35,723 nt of DNA from the IMG/VR virus record IMGVR_UViG_3300047289_000009, positions 1 through 35,723 of that record; one strand, written 5' to 3'. The position numbers and the translations under genes are program-made. Source of the DNA: a virus (taxonomy: Duplodnaviria > Caudoviricetes). Below the pieces are notes generated by a model that was given only the letters and a program-made list of their open reading frames with translations, did no database searches and was not told where the DNA came from. Positions 5,688-34,584 of the stretch are shown piece by piece. Each line of letters opens with the position of its first letter. Within the stretch, counting starts at the first letter, position 1.

Positions 5688-6368
5688 ATGGCCAGCGAAA
5701 TTGACATCTGTAACTTAGCCCTTGGCCACCTTGGCGATACTGCCACAGTGTCAAGCATCAAGCCGCCTGAAGGCTCGGCTCAATCACAACACTGCGCTCG
5801 GTTCTACCCGATTGCGCGTGACACTCTTTTTGAGATGCACTCATGGGGCTTTGCCACCAAGCGTGCGTCACTTGCCCTTCTGACCAGCTCATGGCCAGAA
5901 TGGGACTATTGCTATGGCATGCCGCCTGACGTTGCAAACATCCTTGCCATCATTCCACCTGACGCGAATGACGACTACTCATCGCACTTTGTCCCAACGG
6001 ACACACCGTTCACATCGGCCAACTTTGCGCCTGTGGTTGCTGCTGGTCGATATGTGCCGCAAGACTTCTCTGCTGAAATTCTTGAAGATGGCACACAAGT
6101 CATCTATACCGACCAGTCAAACGCTGTGATGCGATACACGGCCACCATCTCTGACACCACAAAGTTCTCGCCGCTGTTCACCATGACGCTGTCGTGGCAC
6201 TTGGCATCGATGCTGGCTGGCCCAATCATCAAGGGTGATGCTGGCGCTGCTGAAGCCAAGCGCTGCACTGCCATGATGCAAGGCTACTTGGCTCGCGCAA
6301 CATCGTCTGATGCAAACCAACGAAAGGCCAACCCGCAACAAATCGTTGGCTGGATGGCTGGGAGATAA
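5688..6368 (+). CDS. Tail tubular protein A / head-tail adaptor
   Basis: MASEIDICNLALGHLG, CARFYPIARD, H.WGFATKR, FSPLF...LSW.LAS.LA motifs. Confidence 0.85.
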   Translation: MASEIDICNLALGHLGDTATVSSIKPPEGSAQSQHCARFYPIARDTLFEMHSWGFATKRASLALLTSSWPEWDYCYGMPPDVANILAIIPPDANDDYSSHFVPTDTPFTSANFAPVVAAGRYVPQDFSAEILEDGTQVIYTDQSNAVMRYTATISDTTKFSPLFTMTLSWHLASMLAGPIIKGDAGAAEAKRCTAMMQGYLARATSSDANQRKANPQQIVGWMAGR

Positions 6369-26390: not shown

Positions 26391-26775
26391 CCTTGGCATT
26401 TTCATTGGCTGCTTGCTGATTGCTTTTTTCGCTGGCCGATACGAAGAGCGTCAGGCAATCAAGGCAGAAGTCGAGCGCATTGAATCATCGATGCGTGACG
26501 AAGCTGCCGCCACTACCGCAAAACTTGAAAAGGAAAAACGTGATGCTCAAACCAAAGTTGACCAGCTTCGTGCTGATGTCGCTGCTGGCGCTGTCAGGCT
26601 GTCAGTCCGTGCCAGTTGCTCTGCCTCCACTGCCGCAGGGGATTCAGAAGCGCGAGCCGAACTTGACCCAAAGACTGCTGACGACCTTATCGCCATCACC
26701 GCAGACGGCGACCAAGCCATCATCGAACTAAACACCTGCATCGATTTTTACAACAAACTGAGGGAAATTAAATGA
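26380..26775 (+). CDS. Inner-membrane spanin (Rz-like)
   Basis: N-terminal TM, coiled coil, LRADVAAGAVRLSV, RAELDP, GDQAI..LN.C. Contains an embedded lipoprotein gene. Confidence 0.88.
   Translation: MLRNLGIFIGCLLIAFFAGRYEERQAIKAEVERIESSMRDEAAATTAKLEKEKRDAQTKVDQLRADVAAGAVRLSVRASCSASTAAGDSEARAELDPKTADDLIAITADGDQAIIELNTCIDFYNKLREIK
26543..26731 (+). CDS. Outer-membrane spanin (Rz1-like lipoprotein), embedded in Rz
   Basis: +1 frame, AAGGA RBS, MLKPKLTSFVLMSLLALSG-C lipobox, Pro-rich mature part. Confidence 0.85.
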   Translation: MLKPKLTSFVLMSLLALSGCQSVPVALPPLPQGIQKREPNLTQRLLTTLSPSPQTATKPSSN

Positions 26776-27242
26776 CTCAACTCACCGCGCACTTCAGCCT
26801 TGAAGAGCTGACACACACAGACCATCGCGAGCTGGACAACACACCAACCACGGCAGAGCATTGCATCATTGATGGCAAAGAAGTCATCGTGAACGCATAC
26901 GAGAACCTGCCACGCTTGGCTGCATTCTTGGAGCAGGTCAAAGTTTTGTTGGGCGGCAAAGCAATCTTTGTCAACAGCGGCTTTCGCTCTCACGCTGTGA
27001 ACACCGCAGTCGGTTCAAAGGACACCAGCGACCATCGCCGTGGTTGCGCTGCTGACATCCGTGTTGACGGCATGACACCAGACCAAGTGACCCGCGCCAT
27101 CATTGCCAGCGACCTGCCGTACCAGCAAGTCATTCGCGAGTTTGACCGCTGGACTCATGTGGCCATCACGACAAACGAAGGCGACACACCCAAGAAGTCA
27201 AAGCTCATCATTGACAAGGCTGGCACACGACCCTTTGCCTGA
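26772..27242 (+). CDS. Endolysin, peptidase M15 family
   Basis: HFSLEEL, NSGFRS..VN.AVG...TSDH..GCAADI and W.HV zinc-ligand motifs. Confidence 0.9.
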   Translation: MTQLTAHFSLEELTHTDHRELDNTPTTAEHCIIDGKEVIVNAYENLPRLAAFLEQVKVLLGGKAIFVNSGFRSHAVNTAVGSKDTSDHRRGCAADIRVDGMTPDQVTRAIIASDLPYQQVIREFDRWTHVAITTNEGDTPKKSKLIIDKAGTRPFA

Positions 27243-27248
27243 TATACT
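27240..27248 (+). promoter_or_regulatory. Extended -10 promoter (TGaTATACT) overlapping the endolysin stop
   Basis: TGn followed by TATACT. No ORF downstream, only ~70 nt to a terminator. Confidence 0.55.
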
Positions 27249-27254
27249 GGCATC

Positions 27255-27325
27255 GGTTCTTACATGCAGTTGCTCTCTCCATGTAGGTTGAAAGCCCCAG
27301 CCGTAAAAAGCTGGGGCTTTTTCTT
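27255..27325 (+). ncRNA. Candidate trans-acting antisense sRNA (anti-RBS seed TTGCTCTCTCC)
   Basis: Promoter, then hairpin CTTACATG/CATGTAGG with loop CAGTTGCTCTCTC, then terminator. The seed is complementary to the RBSs at 30425-30435, 31129-31139 and 34405-34415. Confidence 0.55.
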
Positions 27326-27326
27326 T
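27291..27326 (+). terminator. Rho-independent terminator between convergent operons (possibly bidirectional)
   Basis: AAAGCCCCAGC-CGTAAAAA-GCTGGGGCTTT followed by TTCTTT. Confidence 0.88.
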
Positions 27327-27570
27327 ACCACTTGGGGGCGCAGGTGACCTCGGCCACTATCTCTGTGGTGTAGCCATTGATTTTGCGTTTCGCGTAGAGG
27401 ATGACGGCTCTCAGGCCGTTTGTCTCACACTCACGCACGGCAACAATAATCTCGTTGCGCGACATTGGCTGCACCTTGTTGTCCAGCACCAGCTCTTGGT
27501 CGGTCAGCTTTGGTTGGCTTGAGCAGCCAGCCAGTGCCAACACGACCATGATGAGGAATAGTTTTTTCAT
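27325..27570 (-). CDS. Small lipoprotein (81 aa)
   Basis: MKKLFLIMVVLALAG-C lipobox. GGAG RBS upstream of the ATG at 27570. Confidence 0.8.
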   Translation of the reverse strand: MKKLFLIMVVLALAGCSSQPKLTDQELVLDNKVQPMSRNEIIVAVRECETNGLRAVILYAKRKINGYTTEIVAEVTCAPKW

Positions 27571-28052
27571 TTTGACTCTCCTTTTGGCCAACCAAGTTTG
27601 CTGAGTTCTGCCGACATGTTTGCTATTGCTGGCAAATTAGCTGACGGCTTGTCTTCTGTTGGGAAATACTTTTTGAACTCAGGAAGCCTGTCGTTTAATT
27701 GCTTCAATGATGTGCATGCATCAACCACGCCAGTCAGCTTTCGCTTTGCATCATGAATCGCTTGGTCTTCTTGCTCATATTTTTTGACAAGCTCTTTGAT
27801 TTGCTTTTCGGTGACATCGGCGCAAACAATTCTGCGGCCTTCATGGTAGTAACCGTTGTCGCAAATTAAATCGCCAACATGATATTCAGCGAGAGCCTTT
27901 GGTGTTGTCTTGTAAATTTTTCTCAATGCTGGTGACATGAGTTTGACGACAGCTTCTTGCAGCTCAGTTCTGCGTTTTGTTTTGTTTGGCTTGGGTACGT
28001 CTGCCATGATTGCTTTGACGATTGCCTGTTTATCCCACTTTGTAATTCTCAT
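27567..28052 (-). CDS. Nmad5-like (nucleotide-modification-associated domain 5) protein
   Basis: MRITK..KQAIV..IM N-terminus and CTSLKQL...LPE..KY.P.....NLPA C-terminus. Confidence 0.65.
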   Translation of the reverse strand: MRITKWDKQAIVKAIMADVPKPNKTKRRTELQEAVVKLMSPALRKIYKTTPKALAEYHVGDLICDNGYYHEGRRIVCADVTEKQIKELVKKYEQEDQAIHDAKRKLTGVVDACTSLKQLNDRLPEFKKYFPTEDKPSANLPAIANMSAELSKLGWPKGESK

Positions 28053-29251: not shown

Positions 29252-29478
29252 GCTGCACCTTCAATCAAGTCTGCTTGCTCTGCGATGGTCGATGCAATCT
29301 CAACCACAGCACCTTGCTTGCCCATCATCATGGCCACGTCAACCGCGCGTGCCACTTCGATGCTGTACTGTTTGCCAGCAATGTGGCGCAGGGCTTGCGC
29401 TTGGCTGGTTGCTTGGACGAGGTACACGTTGTTGTTGCCTGTCACTTTGTAGATGCGTTGTTCTGCTGCCATTTTCAT
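29248..29478 (-). CDS. Hypothetical phage protein
   Basis: Coupled to the exonuclease gene. RIY.V....LV.A.SQAQALRH.A motif. Confidence 0.75.
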   Translation of the reverse strand: MKMAAEQRIYKVTGNNNVYLVQATSQAQALRHIAGKQYSIEVARAVDVAMMMGKQGAVVEIASTIAEQADLIEGAA

Positions 29479-30425
29479 TTTTCCTTTTTTGCTGTGAAGC
29501 GAAAGTTGCGAAAGCCCTTGCGAGCGCCGTAGTAAGTGCCGACCATGTCAGCGGTTATCTGCGTACCCAAACTGTCTTTTGTTGTACCGCAGGAAATTGT
29601 TCCGAGCTGGCTGACCACCTTGCTTGCGCTGCCAATGGCCATGAGAATCTCAGCCTTGGTTGCTTCGCGAATATCGGTCTGCTCTTTGATGGATTGGCCA
29701 AGGTAGTGGTAGCGCTCGATGAGCATGTCCAGCTCTGGTGTTGCCTCGGCAACCAAGCCATCGATGGAGTCGCCGCGCAACTGCTTGATGATGAACTCAG
29801 CATCGGCTGAATAGTCTGGATTGGGCGCAGCGTTGGCATCGACCTTGGCCCAGAACTCAGCAATCTTCTTGCGAATATCTGCACCAATTTCCTTGTCGCG
29901 CTTACGCAGCACAATCTTCAAAGTGTTGCCGCCAACCAGCAAGCACAGCGCTGTCCACTCGTAGCCTGTCAGCTCCATCTGGTGTTGGATTTGCAGCTCA
30001 ATGTGTTCTGGCGCTTCAATATTGCCAGCGCCGTCATCGAGCCAGTTGCGTGCGTACTGCAAGCCGTCCACGTTCTTGACCTCCAAGATGCCTTTGCCCT
30101 TGTCGCTGTCAAGAATCTCAAAGTCAAAGCTCGAACCCATACGCAGGTCTGGGTCGCGCATGTACACCTTGAGCGGCGCAATGCTCCAACCCATCTCTTC
30201 GGCCGCGCCGTGGGCGATTGCAGCCTCAAGGCGGTTGCCCCACTTCATGCGCTCGTTGGCCTCAAACTTGACAGACACGCCGTCACGTTTTTCGTGGAAC
30301 AGCTCGAACTCTGTCTTGTATGGTGACAGGCCGTACAGAGCTGGTATCTCTGTGCTGGTGATGTCTTTCTTGCGCTCACCCAACCATTGGGCCTCGCTGG
30401 TGATTTGGATAATCTCTACTGTCAT
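29475..30425 (-). CDS. YqaJ-like viral recombinase / lambda-exonuclease family protein
   Basis: WL.ERK..I.STE, SPYKT..EL..EK, WG..LE, S.D...LEVK and Q.QHQM motifs. Adjacent to recT. Confidence 0.92.
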   Translation of the reverse strand: MTVEIIQITSEAQWLGERKKDITSTEIPALYGLSPYKTEFELFHEKRDGVSVKFEANERMKWGNRLEAAIAHGAAEEMGWSIAPLKVYMRDPDLRMGSSFDFEILDSDKGKGILEVKNVDGLQYARNWLDDGAGNIEAPEHIELQIQHQMELTGYEWTALCLLVGGNTLKIVLRKRDKEIGADIRKKIAEFWAKVDANAAPNPDYSADAEFIIKQLRGDSIDGLVAEATPELDMLIERYHYLGQSIKEQTDIREATKAEILMAIGSASKVVSQLGTISCGTTKDSLGTQITADMVGTYYGARKGFRNFRFTAKKEK

Positions 30426-30439
30426 TGCTCTCTCCTTGG

Positions 30440-30650: not shown

Positions 30651-30683
30651 ATTTTAGCATGGATTGTTGATGCTGCATCAACT
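30651..30683 (-). promoter_or_regulatory. Leftward extended -10 promoter (TGcTAAAAT) with palindromic operator TGTTGA-N7-TCAACT
   Basis: Operator at 30665-30683 (GTTGATGC-T-GCATCAAC) covers the -35 region. Confidence 0.6.
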
Positions 30684-30747: not shown

Positions 30748-31128
30748 TTAACCACGGCTGTGGCCCCACGATGGCATGACCCAGTCGTTCATCTTGTTGA
30801 CGAGGTCTGAGTGCAGCTCCTTCTTTTGAATGTTCCCTCGCAGGTAAGCATCCCAGTCGGCCATCATCTGCTGCCAGTGGACATGCAGATATTTGTGGGC
30901 GCGAGCTTGTGACTCGAACTTGAAGCTCTCAGGTGCGTACTGGTTGATGCGCTCCTGAATCCACTCAGTGATGCCTTGCTGCTGCTTGGCCAACGCAGCC
31001 TGTGCGGCCGACTTGAGTGGGCTGTCCTTGAGGCTGTCCAACCAGCATGACAGGGTTGCCCATTGCATGAAGCCGTCTTGAGTGACGCGACCTTGAATGC
31101 CATCGAATGTGAAAGTTGCTGTTGTCAT
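30748..31128 (-). CDS. Hypothetical early protein (126 aa)
   Basis: First gene of the leftward operon, GGAGAGAGCAA RBS. Confidence 0.7.
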   Translation of the reverse strand: MTTATFTFDGIQGRVTQDGFMQWATLSCWLDSLKDSPLKSAAQAALAKQQQGITEWIQERINQYAPESFKFESQARAHKYLHVHWQQMMADWDAYLRGNIQKKELHSDLVNKMNDWVMPSWGHSRG

Positions 31129-31151
31129 TTGCTCTCTCCGTGTTGTTGATG

Positions 31152-31170
31152 TGTTGATTCTAGTTCAACA
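31152..31170. promoter_or_regulatory. Operator TGTTGA-N7-TCAACA overlapping leftward -10 (TAGAAT)
   Basis: Perfect 6-bp inverted repeat in the AT-rich divergent intergenic region. Confidence 0.65.
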
Positions 31171-31492: not shown

Positions 31493-31845
31493 TTGATGCG
31501 TTGCTGCCGTGGCCACCCACGGTCAACACATACTGGCGCAACATCAAAGGGCGCACCATCATCAGTGAGCGCGGCCGCTTGTACCGACTGAAGGTATACG
31601 GCCAGTTCAAAGCTGAAGGCTACACCGCACCAATGACTGGGCGCTTGGCCATCAAGATTGCAGCCTACCCGCCTGACAAACGGAGGCGCGACCTTGACAA
31701 CATCCTGAAGGCATTACTCGATTCGTTGACGTTTTCGCAAGTCATCGAAGACGACTCGCAGTTTGACTTCATCTCTGTAGCGCGGCGCAACGTCATCACT
31801 GACGGCGCTGTGCGAATCACTATCACTCAACTGGAGCAACTATGA
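31489..31845 (+). CDS. rusA: RusA-family Holliday junction resolvase
   Basis: LPWPPTVNTYWR and PPDKRRRDLDNILKALLDSL.....IEDDSQ. Confidence 0.95.
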   Translation: MIDALLPWPPTVNTYWRNIKGRTIISERGRLYRLKVYGQFKAEGYTAPMTGRLAIKIAAYPPDKRRRDLDNILKALLDSLTFSQVIEDDSQFDFISVARRNVITDGAVRITITQLEQL

Positions 31846-33788: not shown

Positions 33789-34420
33789 CACCAGCAGACA
33801 AACCAAAGCTGTCGGCCATCGTCACTGACGTGATGGCCTACTACCGCCAAGACACCTCGCTGTTCACGCTGGGCATCTGGTGGGAAGCCTTCAAAGGGTT
33901 TGAGCTTGAGCAGGTGAGCCATGCCCTCACACGCCACGCAACCGACCCAGAGCGCGGTCAATTCGCTCCGAAGGTGGCAGACATAGTCCGACTGCTTCAA
34001 GGCACGCCTACAGACCGCGCACAGCTTGCTTGGGGTAAATGCCTCGATGCCATGCAGCGCATCGGTGCGTACAGCGACATCGTGTTCGATGACCCAGCAA
34101 TTCACGCAGTGGTCGAAGACCTTGGCGGCTGGTCAAAGATTTGCCGCAGCACCTACGAGGAGTTGAGCTATTTGCAACACCGCTTCTGCGAGGCTCACAA
34201 AGCCTACACGCGACAGGAGCGATTCGAGTACCCGCGCATGCTGTCTGGCGACAGGTCATCTGACGACATGTACCGCATGAAGGGATTGAAGCCACCAGCA
34301 CCAGCAGTCGTTGGTGACAAAGAAGTGGCACGACTGGTTTACAAGGGTGGCAAGACTGGCGGCAAGACCGTGATGTCACTCGCTGATTTTTCAACCAAAC
34401 AACTGGAGAGAGCAAATTGA
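33785..34420 (+). CDS. DUF6475-like replication-associated protein
   Basis: F.PK.AD, G.YSDIVFDDPAIHAVV..LGGW..IC motifs. Follows the initiator gene. Confidence 0.8.
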   Translation: MTPADKPKLSAIVTDVMAYYRQDTSLFTLGIWWEAFKGFELEQVSHALTRHATDPERGQFAPKVADIVRLLQGTPTDRAQLAWGKCLDAMQRIGAYSDIVFDDPAIHAVVEDLGGWSKICRSTYEELSYLQHRFCEAHKAYTRQERFEYPRMLSGDRSSDDMYRMKGLKPPAPAVVGDKEVARLVYKGGKTGGKTVMSLADFSTKQLERAN

Positions 34421-34584
34421 AAACAATCTACATCATCGCAATCATCTTGGCCATGCTTGGCATCGCTGGCACGATTGACTACGAAGAGCAACTGCGTGAA
34501 GACCAACACTACTGCGAGATGGTCAAGGCAGGAAACTGGCCAGCCTACAAACCAGAGGTGGACTGCAAGGAGTACGCAAAATGA
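34417..34584 (+). CDS. Small exported/membrane protein (55 aa; absent from the ORF track)
   Basis: TTG start after GGAGAGAGCAA, overlapping both neighbours by 4 bp. MKTIYIIAIILAMLGIAGTIDYEEQ...YCEMVKAGNWPAY. Confidence 0.75.
   Translation: MKTIYIIAIILAMLGIAGTIDYEEQLREDQHYCEMVKAGNWPAYKPEVDCKEYAK

Follow-up and report, generated by a model that had tools for sequence, protein, structure and literature searches.

An RNA gene predicted between the lysis and early genes of a podovirus, with complementarity to host histone-H1-like and SWIB gene starts and to early ribosome binding sites of the phage

What does a phage keep in the short gap between its last late gene and the end of the convergent early operon? 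The window analysed here is the whole record of a freshwater podovirus, 35,723 nt in length, with a head-tail module, RecE/RecT, Cro, RusA, SSB, MazG and a replication protein; domain and PHROG annotation of these 35.7 kb gave no match to CI or to an integrase. A preliminary description of the gap had suggested a small RNA whose hairpin is antisense to a ribosome binding site (RBS) shared by several early genes. Host mRNAs had not been considered as targets, and it is to these that the most conserved part of the RNA appears to point. Among cultured phages the nearest is Limnohabitans phage DC33 (91% identity in the capsid protein, 60% in YqaJ), from which we infer that the host of the window is a Limnohabitans-like Comamonadaceae cell.

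The element and its matches in the window

The features on which the argument rests are as follows.

26772..27242, plus strand: endolysin (peptidase M15), the last late gene and upstream neighbour of the element, by annotation
27220..27248, plus strand: predicted sigma70-type promoter, with -35-like CTGGCA at 27220-27225, 17 nt, and extended -10 TG-N-TATACT at 27240-27248
27255..27326, plus strand: predicted sRNA of about 70 nt, its start placed from the -10 box; supported by fold energy
27259..27287, plus strand: hairpin 1, predicted by folding, with an 8-bp stem (27259-27266/27280-27287) and a 13-nt loop
27266..27274, plus strand: family core GCAGUUGCU (family consensus GCAGUUGCC), from family comparison
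27270..27280, plus strand: 11-mer complementary to three early-gene RBSs of the phage, spanning core and anti-Shine-Dalgarno segment, from a match search
27274..27282, plus strand: anti-Shine-Dalgarno (anti-SD) segment UCUCUCCAU, from the sequence
27294..27326, plus strand: intrinsic terminator, predicted by folding, with GC stem 27294-27301/27310-27317 and U-tract 27318-27326
27325..27570, minus strand: Cor-like lipoprotein, with which the convergent early operon ends (weak match to PHROG 1119, E 3.6e-5)
30425..30435, minus strand: predicted own target, RBS of the YqaJ exonuclease gene (29475-30425), exact 11-mer
31129..31139, minus strand: predicted own target, RBS of the first leftward early gene (30748-31128), exact 11-mer
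31834..31841, plus strand: weaker predicted own target, ssb RBS, 8-nt match
34404..34415, plus strand: predicted own target, RBS of a 55-aa gene (34417-34584, PHROG 6168), 12-nt match

The extended -10, which overlaps the endolysin stop codon, the 8-bp hairpin and the terminator are present as first described, and the region of hairpin and terminator folds at -30.3 kcal/mol (z -4.6); the terminator at 27294..27326 was not picked up by a simple terminator scan and was seen by folding. In one relative (L003) hairpin 1 has the same loop on a different stem sequence. The 11-mer had been placed almost entirely in the loop, and 10 of its 11 nt do lie within the 13 nt, but the positions predicted to be open are limited to 27270-27276 (UUGCUCU) and 27279, and two bases of the loop pair internally. 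The statement that this strand holds no open reading frame needs amendment, as a 62-codon TTG-started frame (27103-27291, plus strand, in another frame) extends into the element.

The sequence GGAGAGAGCAA occurs exactly four times in the window, opposite the hairpin (27270-27280, minus) and at 30425-30435 (minus), 31129-31139 (minus) and 34405-34415 (plus), whereas shuffled sequences hold 0.06 copies on average and none of 100 shuffles reached four. The genome-wide count that had been proposed as a check thus returned the hairpin and the three early-gene RBSs as claimed, except that the match at the 55-aa gene is 12 nt long and not 11. With two mismatches permitted the count (14) is at chance level (12.8 expected), so the own-RBS signal consists of exact matches only. 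Over 49 hand-set starts (four of them mis-set, three of these by one base), the longest antisense match was 11, 11 and 12 nt for the three targets, 8 nt for ssb and the 32926 gene, 7 nt for recT and the replication gene and 5-6 nt for the 30622 and Cor genes, and it never exceeded 6 nt at the 26 virion and lysis starts, in line with the earlier remark that no virion-gene RBS carries the full 11-mer. The duplex of the element with the YqaJ RBS is predicted at -31.9 kcal/mol, which is lower by 8.6 than expected from the swap. The first leftward early gene has the same target site in L003, L150 and L151, and in L151 a fourth gene matches as well.

Further observations were made elsewhere in the window. 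Inverted repeats GTTGA-N7-TCAAC (30666-30682 and 31153-31169) lie over both predicted leftward early promoters, the -10-like boxes of the 30622 and 31128 genes. Orthologs in relatives are preceded by similar repeats as well, and we regard the repeats as candidate Cro operators. A gene with an Nmad5 domain (27567-28052, minus) is inserted between the HTH gene and the Cor-like gene and is missing or replaced in related-phage contigs from four RNA runs, and a head-module gene (1319-1729, plus) matches PHROG 858, annotated as a starvation-inducible transcriptional regulator.

The family and its own-gene matches across lineages

Relatives were reached through the endolysin, Cor and YqaJ. Behind their last lysis gene, in the corresponding slot, they carry a -10-like box and a terminator, with 35-60 nt in between that include the motifs GUUGYY and UCUCC. 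The family layout comprises a -10 box, a conserved GCAGUUGYY core, the anti-SD segment UCUCC, which is predicted to be more open than the rest (0.72 vs 0.49), and a terminator; motif order and spacing vary, the anti-SD segment standing 3' of the core (colinear order) in 44 of 69 lineages and only 5' of it in 20. The pattern GTTGYC plus terminator gave 115 distinct viral matches, 27 of them with GCA directly before it against a background of 1.9%, and GCAGTTGYC plus terminator is estimated to occur in about 860 IMG/VR stretches versus about 520 in 596 Gb of bacterial genomes. Since CTCC lies alongside the core in 83 of 105 viral but only 22 of 118 bacterial pattern matches, the bacterial ones are mostly chance, and a search for a chromosomal copy in the host family with a loose pattern gave matches in 15 of 151 genomes that likewise looked mostly chance-like.

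The element occurs in unrelated phage types and in different contexts (62 convergent, 23 tandem and 11 divergent among 109 loci). Of 71 lineages, 30 have a TATAAT-like box (at least five of six bases) at a distance of 25-95 nt upstream of the terminator, and in 29 of these the distance is 37-61 nt. Such a box precedes 9 of 150 other terminators (p=2e-10); shuffling would give 10.4 lineages with a box, and the opposite strand and a region further upstream gave 2 and 3 of 71, respectively. Because box, core, anti-SD segment and terminator recur together in unrelated phages and contexts, the element is likely a stand-alone sRNA gene, and the family-wide -10 box strengthens the original proposal on this point. 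Assembled contigs of seven public RNA runs were compared with the window in two rounds; none of those in the second round covers the element, and runs with a small share carry no weight in this. Three of four GenBank phages found by synteny (DC33, zth2-2 and MW202722) carry the element and MW202640 lacks it, while BLASTN of the element against cultured phages yielded terminator-level matches only. No Rfam family reaches its gathering score in the window, the element family is absent from Rfam, and the open-access listings and abstracts consulted describe neither this family nor a phage sRNA directed against H1-like genes.

Several loci show variations on this arrangement. In one subfamily (L007, L018, L022, L249, L263, L276, L347, L373, L375, L382, L420 and L424) the opposite strand reads an RBS, an ATG and an ORF of 13-15 codons, which in several loci runs into the start of a gene of about 800 aa that looks primase-like; by analogy with plasmid copy control, the RNA would there be cis-antisense to a leader peptide. 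Five other loci (L060, L061, L063, L064 and L065) have a tRNA-like sequence directly after the endolysin, in the slot used elsewhere by the sRNA. Elements with the same core and terminator were also seen in bacterial genomes (L458, about 5950-6060, of Comamonadaceae PBBC2; L540; L560; L802). Those of L458, L540 and L560 lie behind a -10 box and a palindrome that we take to resemble a LexA box, and in L802 bases complementary to the conserved H1-like leader adjoin the core; these are possible SOS-controlled members of the family on mobile DNA.

Does the match to own RBSs follow the element through the family? Each element was compared with start windows (-22..+3, from a crude ORF caller) of its own record and of other records, with lineages clustered at 15 shared nt in a 30-lineage test and at 16 in later tests, and with rows removed by eye before counting (8 of 60 candidates, to which five syntenic elements were added, and later 9 of 144). 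At locus level the own element was significant in 5 of 30 and then in 7 of 58 lineages. Whole records ranked their own element at p<=0.05 in 9 of 49 cases, or 8 of 43 by lineage (binomial p=0.0012), against 4 of 43 for an upstream window, 1 of 43 within genes and none of 43 for the same sense. The match was not significant in 35 of 43 lineages, including the close relatives L026, L163, L186, L199 and L202, and among cultured phages it was significant for zth2-2 (p=0.014) and not for DC33 (p=0.5) or MW202722 (p=0.93). Repeated own matches of 12-14 nt were found in L335, L361, L376, L396, L399 and L426, and in L360 the change affects the SD core itself, in the RNA as well as in the RBSs.

By ortholog family, 13 of 122 reached p<0.05 and five p<0.01, mostly non-virion genes where identified, and an energy version of the test was concordant (11 of 94 families; p=0.0096, n=6, for the family of the window's 55-aa gene). 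The best family is an early gene of about 135 aa, with 9.4 nt to its own and 6.7 nt to foreign elements in 11 lineages with different flanks (p=0.0002). This gene (L756 1513-1911 and orthologs) sits between a helicase gene and a 300-aa gene of unknown function, and PHROG 13900 labels it a minor head protein, a poor fit with the early context. A genome-wide swap of duplex energies was null (p=0.64, over 37 of 43 lineages, the window not among them), and is insensitive because it also missed known 13-nt matches. A prospective set comprised 11 records that carry the 12-nt seed of the window without being related to it; in this set, two of the visible orthologs of the 135-aa gene match (10 nt in L735, 12 nt in G190) and those of two lineages do not; a second copy of the 11-mer is missing in 10 of these 11 records and in L214, most of them fragments.

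From the 8 significant and 35 non-significant lineages and the prospective results, we conclude that the own-RBS match is real in the window, independently recurrent and optional; the co-variation of RNA and RBS holds in a minority of lineages and is lineage-specific rather than family-wide. The expectation that loop and RBS would co-vary in relatives was thus borne out in some lineages but not in 35 of 43, nor in the yqaJ (p=0.46) and recT (p=0.23) families. A family-wide RBS barcode is not supported, and the loop of the window recurs in unrelated phages, most of them without a matching RBS; the RBS motif with its start codon is itself rare in unrelated phages and found in only 13 of 121 host-family genomes. 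GGCAAC upstream of SDs, looked for as an own target of the core, precedes one early gene in only 3 of 7 lineages and shows no general enrichment. In relatives with a GUUGCC core (L089, L152, L156, L158, L017, L163 and L168) yqaJ starts with ATG GCA A, and core and anti-SD segment can pair in two parts across this start (-24.7 kcal/mol in L156, -26.6 in L089); the lineages are related, and the family test gave p=0.17.

Complementarity to host histone-H1-like and SWIB genes

The constant part of the family leads elsewhere. The core is the exact complement of G GCA ACU GC, with UCUCC able to pair with an SD just upstream; in the window, 27266..27274 complements G-GCA-ACU-GC with a G-U as the last pair. 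Not one of 4047 phage genes has a start with the full core target, and a test for avoidance of the target start in phage genes gave small counts (1 of 67 vs 2 of 37). Searching post hoc with a pattern built from the core, we found the host start motif ATG GCA ACY GCN AAR in 59 of the 61 genomes of a Comamonadaceae genome's family, at 125 sites (ACT codon at 118) versus 2 for the reversed control and usually twice per genome, and GGAGA followed by GGCAACTGC in 56 of these 61 (110 sites vs 16 in the control). Across the order, only 20 of 151 genomes carry the start motif.

Thirty host loci were fetched: 23 are the starts of Lys/Ala-rich proteins beginning MATA, one is transporter-like and six lack the ATG. 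Seventeen of the 23 proteins are histone-H1-like and six combine an H1-like tail with a SWIB domain; the three of the former that were scanned all match NF038053 below its cut-off, one of them also matching PF07382 above cut-off, and the three scanned of the latter all match PF02201. In the host loci L757-L786 and L804-L815 the first codons ATG GCA ACT GC are kept at nucleotide level, in a genome of 66% GC as well, and upstream of the SD the H1-like genes have a conserved leader in common. This nucleotide-level conservation, together with the shared leader, suggests that the starts form a host regulatory site of its own. One such protein, BpH1, is described as dispensable in culture in the consulted part of its source (PMC2848022).

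Is the agreement with the core more than coincidence? An A follows the core in 31 of 59 viral lineages versus 31 of 117 chance matches (p=0.0006), at a position that the search pattern did not cover. This is what would be expected if pairing runs on into the AUG, where A would meet U, and the overall score for the core flanks gave p=1e-4. The base before the core, however, is mostly A (27 of 59), against the predicted U or C. Most core variants in the synteny set are transitions, in which a G-U preserves the pair; this is a hint only, because that set was filtered on the motif. The loop of the window is predicted to pair at -27.1 kcal/mol with SWIB leaders (n=5) and at -21.3 with H1 leaders (n=17), compared with -23 to -24 for its own targets and a median of -12.4 for 70 other host starts. 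With the core masked, 34 of 69 elements favoured H1/SWIB leaders over a set of 28 further leaders with GGAGA, which is no preference (p=0.44); in G155, 400 kb of one 66%-GC genome with 90 starts, the sole such gene ranked 27th of 90 against masked elements. The whole element of DC33 pairs only slightly better with H1 leaders than with controls (-24.5 vs -22.3). The complementarity of the core to host H1-like/SWIB starts is new here, and the constant part of the family would point to host mRNAs, whereas self-targeting appears to hold for the lineage of the window.

Interpretation and comparison with known systems

Sequence and computation establish the promoter-like box, the hairpin, the terminator, the family, both complementarities and the minority co-variation. 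We propose, at a probability of roughly 0.45, that the element encodes an sRNA that acts in trans and blocks translation initiation, with one address that is fixed and directed at the host and another that is variable and directed at the phage itself. Host sigma70 would transcribe the RNA from entry onwards, and the late mRNA could supply the same RNA again as its 3' end. Hfq binds the U-tract of such sRNAs in general and may aid this one in that way. The loop bases UUGCUCU could serve as the nucleating seed from which the RNA would pair across the SD and start region of its mRNAs, excluding the ribosome; the core would engage the first codons of host histone-H1-like and SWIB mRNAs, and the anti-SD flank would also match own early genes. 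A fall in these DNA-compacting proteins might free phage DNA for transcription and replication, and accumulation of the RNA could damp the phage's own recombination and early genes as a delayed negative feedback in lineages with converged RBSs. Against the host address stand the masked-core null, the post hoc target, the wrong order of the anti-SD segment in 20 of 69 lineages and the A before the core. The proposal is directly testable, because the cultured pair of DC33 and Limnohabitans carries the element.

A more far-reaching version, which we hold only tentatively and consider rather doubtful, is that of a widespread, mobile sRNA module whose invariant seed silences host H1-like/SWIB genes while own RBSs converge on a fast-evolving flank. 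The outcome would be an early-to-late switch made of RNA alone and possibly immunity groups of sibling phages that are set by the RNA. If the invariant seed does act in this way, the H1-like/SWIB proteins of freshwater Betaproteobacteria would be revealed as an obstacle to the growth of phages and would gain a role in phage defence, and many uncultured phages of abundant freshwater bacteria would share one RNA tool against these little-studied compacting proteins. A single RNA would then address both host and self, with a phage regulon written in RBS flanks and not in operators.

It is unlikely, in our estimate, that the RNA only shuts off own early genes through a private RBS barcode, with the core serving another role (protein binding, processing or dimerisation) and the host match arising by chance. 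The three exact matches of 11-12 nt in the window, the fourth gene in L151, the co-variation in 8 of 43 lineages and in early-gene families and the null result with the masked core all count in favour of this explanation, and the 8-mer GCAGUUGC, self-complementary when G-U pairs are allowed, would suit dimerisation. Most lineages, however, keep the RNA without an own match, and its most conserved letters lack an own-gene target but have an exact conserved host target with a flank effect.

We give an equally low probability to an anti-SD RNA that represses host mRNAs broadly, in the manner of the betaproteobacterial double-hairpin 'toxic' sRNAs; the own matches would then be a by-product, with no functional repression of phage genes. 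Size and layout resemble the RF02278 RNAs, which, according to the consulted parts of PMC5688073 and PMC11722255, cover the RBSs of genes for transporters and metabolism; in the ranking of 90 starts in G155, host leaders of the GGAGA type come out top with masked elements, and the seed recurs in unrelated phages. Yet the Rfam matches, at 18-29 bits (20.4 for the window, 18.4 for MW202722 and seven of 22-29 among 20 other members), all remain far below the RF02278 gathering score of 50, repeated own matches of 11-14 nt with lineage-specific flanks are not what a generic anti-SD sequence would produce, and the 11-mer of the window is rare at host starts.

Far less credible is an immunity factor that, as had been suggested, replaces CI, here in keeping a carrier or lysogenic state, or that silences the early genes of a superinfecting sibling, the flank defining the immunity group. 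It would accommodate the lack of CI and integrase matches in the window and among the 36 of 52 DC33 proteins tested, the presence among the targets of the first gene behind an early promoter and the Cor-like exclusion lipoprotein next door, but the plaques of DC33 are clear according to the consulted part of PMC12195039, cro and the replication genes are not strong matches, and at 35.7 kb the window falls short of its complete relatives of 39-40 kb. That the RNA replaces CI is improbable, given the clear plaques of DC33 and the lack of integrase and CI among its 36 proteins tested. The weakest explanation does without an RNA gene: next to a terminator, the minus strand would hold an RBS and an ATG-TAA minigene as the relic of a copied early gene. 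A relic was raised in the preliminary description itself, and the explanation draws on the RBS-ATG-TAA reading of the minus strand in the window and L150 and on the subfamily with 13-15 codons, but it largely fails because the minigene is not kept (18 codons in L003, and SD plus ATG in only 25 of 143 elements) and the -10 boxes lie on the plus strand (30 vs 2 of 71), and the conservation of the core across unrelated phages also speaks against it.

Returning to the trans-acting sRNA with two addresses, its own promoter and intrinsic terminator and the lack of a conserved ORF, as read from sequence signals, would place the element among trans-encoded sRNAs. P1/P7 C4 acts in trans on short sites near an RBS, and C4 and P4 CI RNA are processed from their target operon and serve lysogeny; the present element differs in having its own promoter-like box and terminator, and no integrase or CI was found. 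Neither C4 (RF01695) nor P4 CI gave an Rfam match at gathering score, and the 12 matches obtained around the element at E values of up to 10 did not include C4. P22 Sar, lambda OOP and aQ are likewise phage RNAs that repress own genes by base pairing, each antisense to one phage gene in the consulted part of PMC12197685, whereas here several dispersed RBSs on two divergent operons match.

Closer in host range are two chromosomal families. The anti-hemB RNAs (RF02837; PMC1950547, consulted in part) share a betaproteobacterial CU-rich loop and a terminator with the element, but have three hairpins and are chromosomal in 31 of 41 family genomes; there is no match in the window, and family members score 16-28 bits, mostly driven by the terminator. 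As a parent family they were rejected, since the cut-off of 49.5 is not reached and the core is absent from 30 of 30 copies. The RF02278 RNAs (ncS03, ncS05, ncS27, ncS62 and the related Bordetella S17; 57-92 nt in the consulted parts of PMC5688073, PMC4603805 and PMC11722255) resemble it in combining, in the same host class, a short hairpin and a terminator with unpaired CU-rich anti-RBS stretches, a combination that the element also displays. They differ in being chromosomal, with one in a Comamonadaceae genome (57.8 bits), and neither their consensus nor the one copy examined holds the GCAGUUGCC core.

The nearest functional parallel may be HnrS, a prophage-encoded 66-nt sRNA of EHEC/EPEC that represses hha translation according to the consulted part of PMC13502914, and which we compare by description only. 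Both would be short phage-borne RNAs that act in trans by pairing with the RBS of a host nucleoid-associated-protein mRNA, hha in the case of HnrS, and so block translation; complementarity to the translation start of a host nucleoid protein is present here too, with the masked-core test null. The element described here differs in its host group and in its H1-like/SWIB targets, with the predicted pairing including their first codons, and it is carried by apparently lytic phages with a second address on their own early genes.
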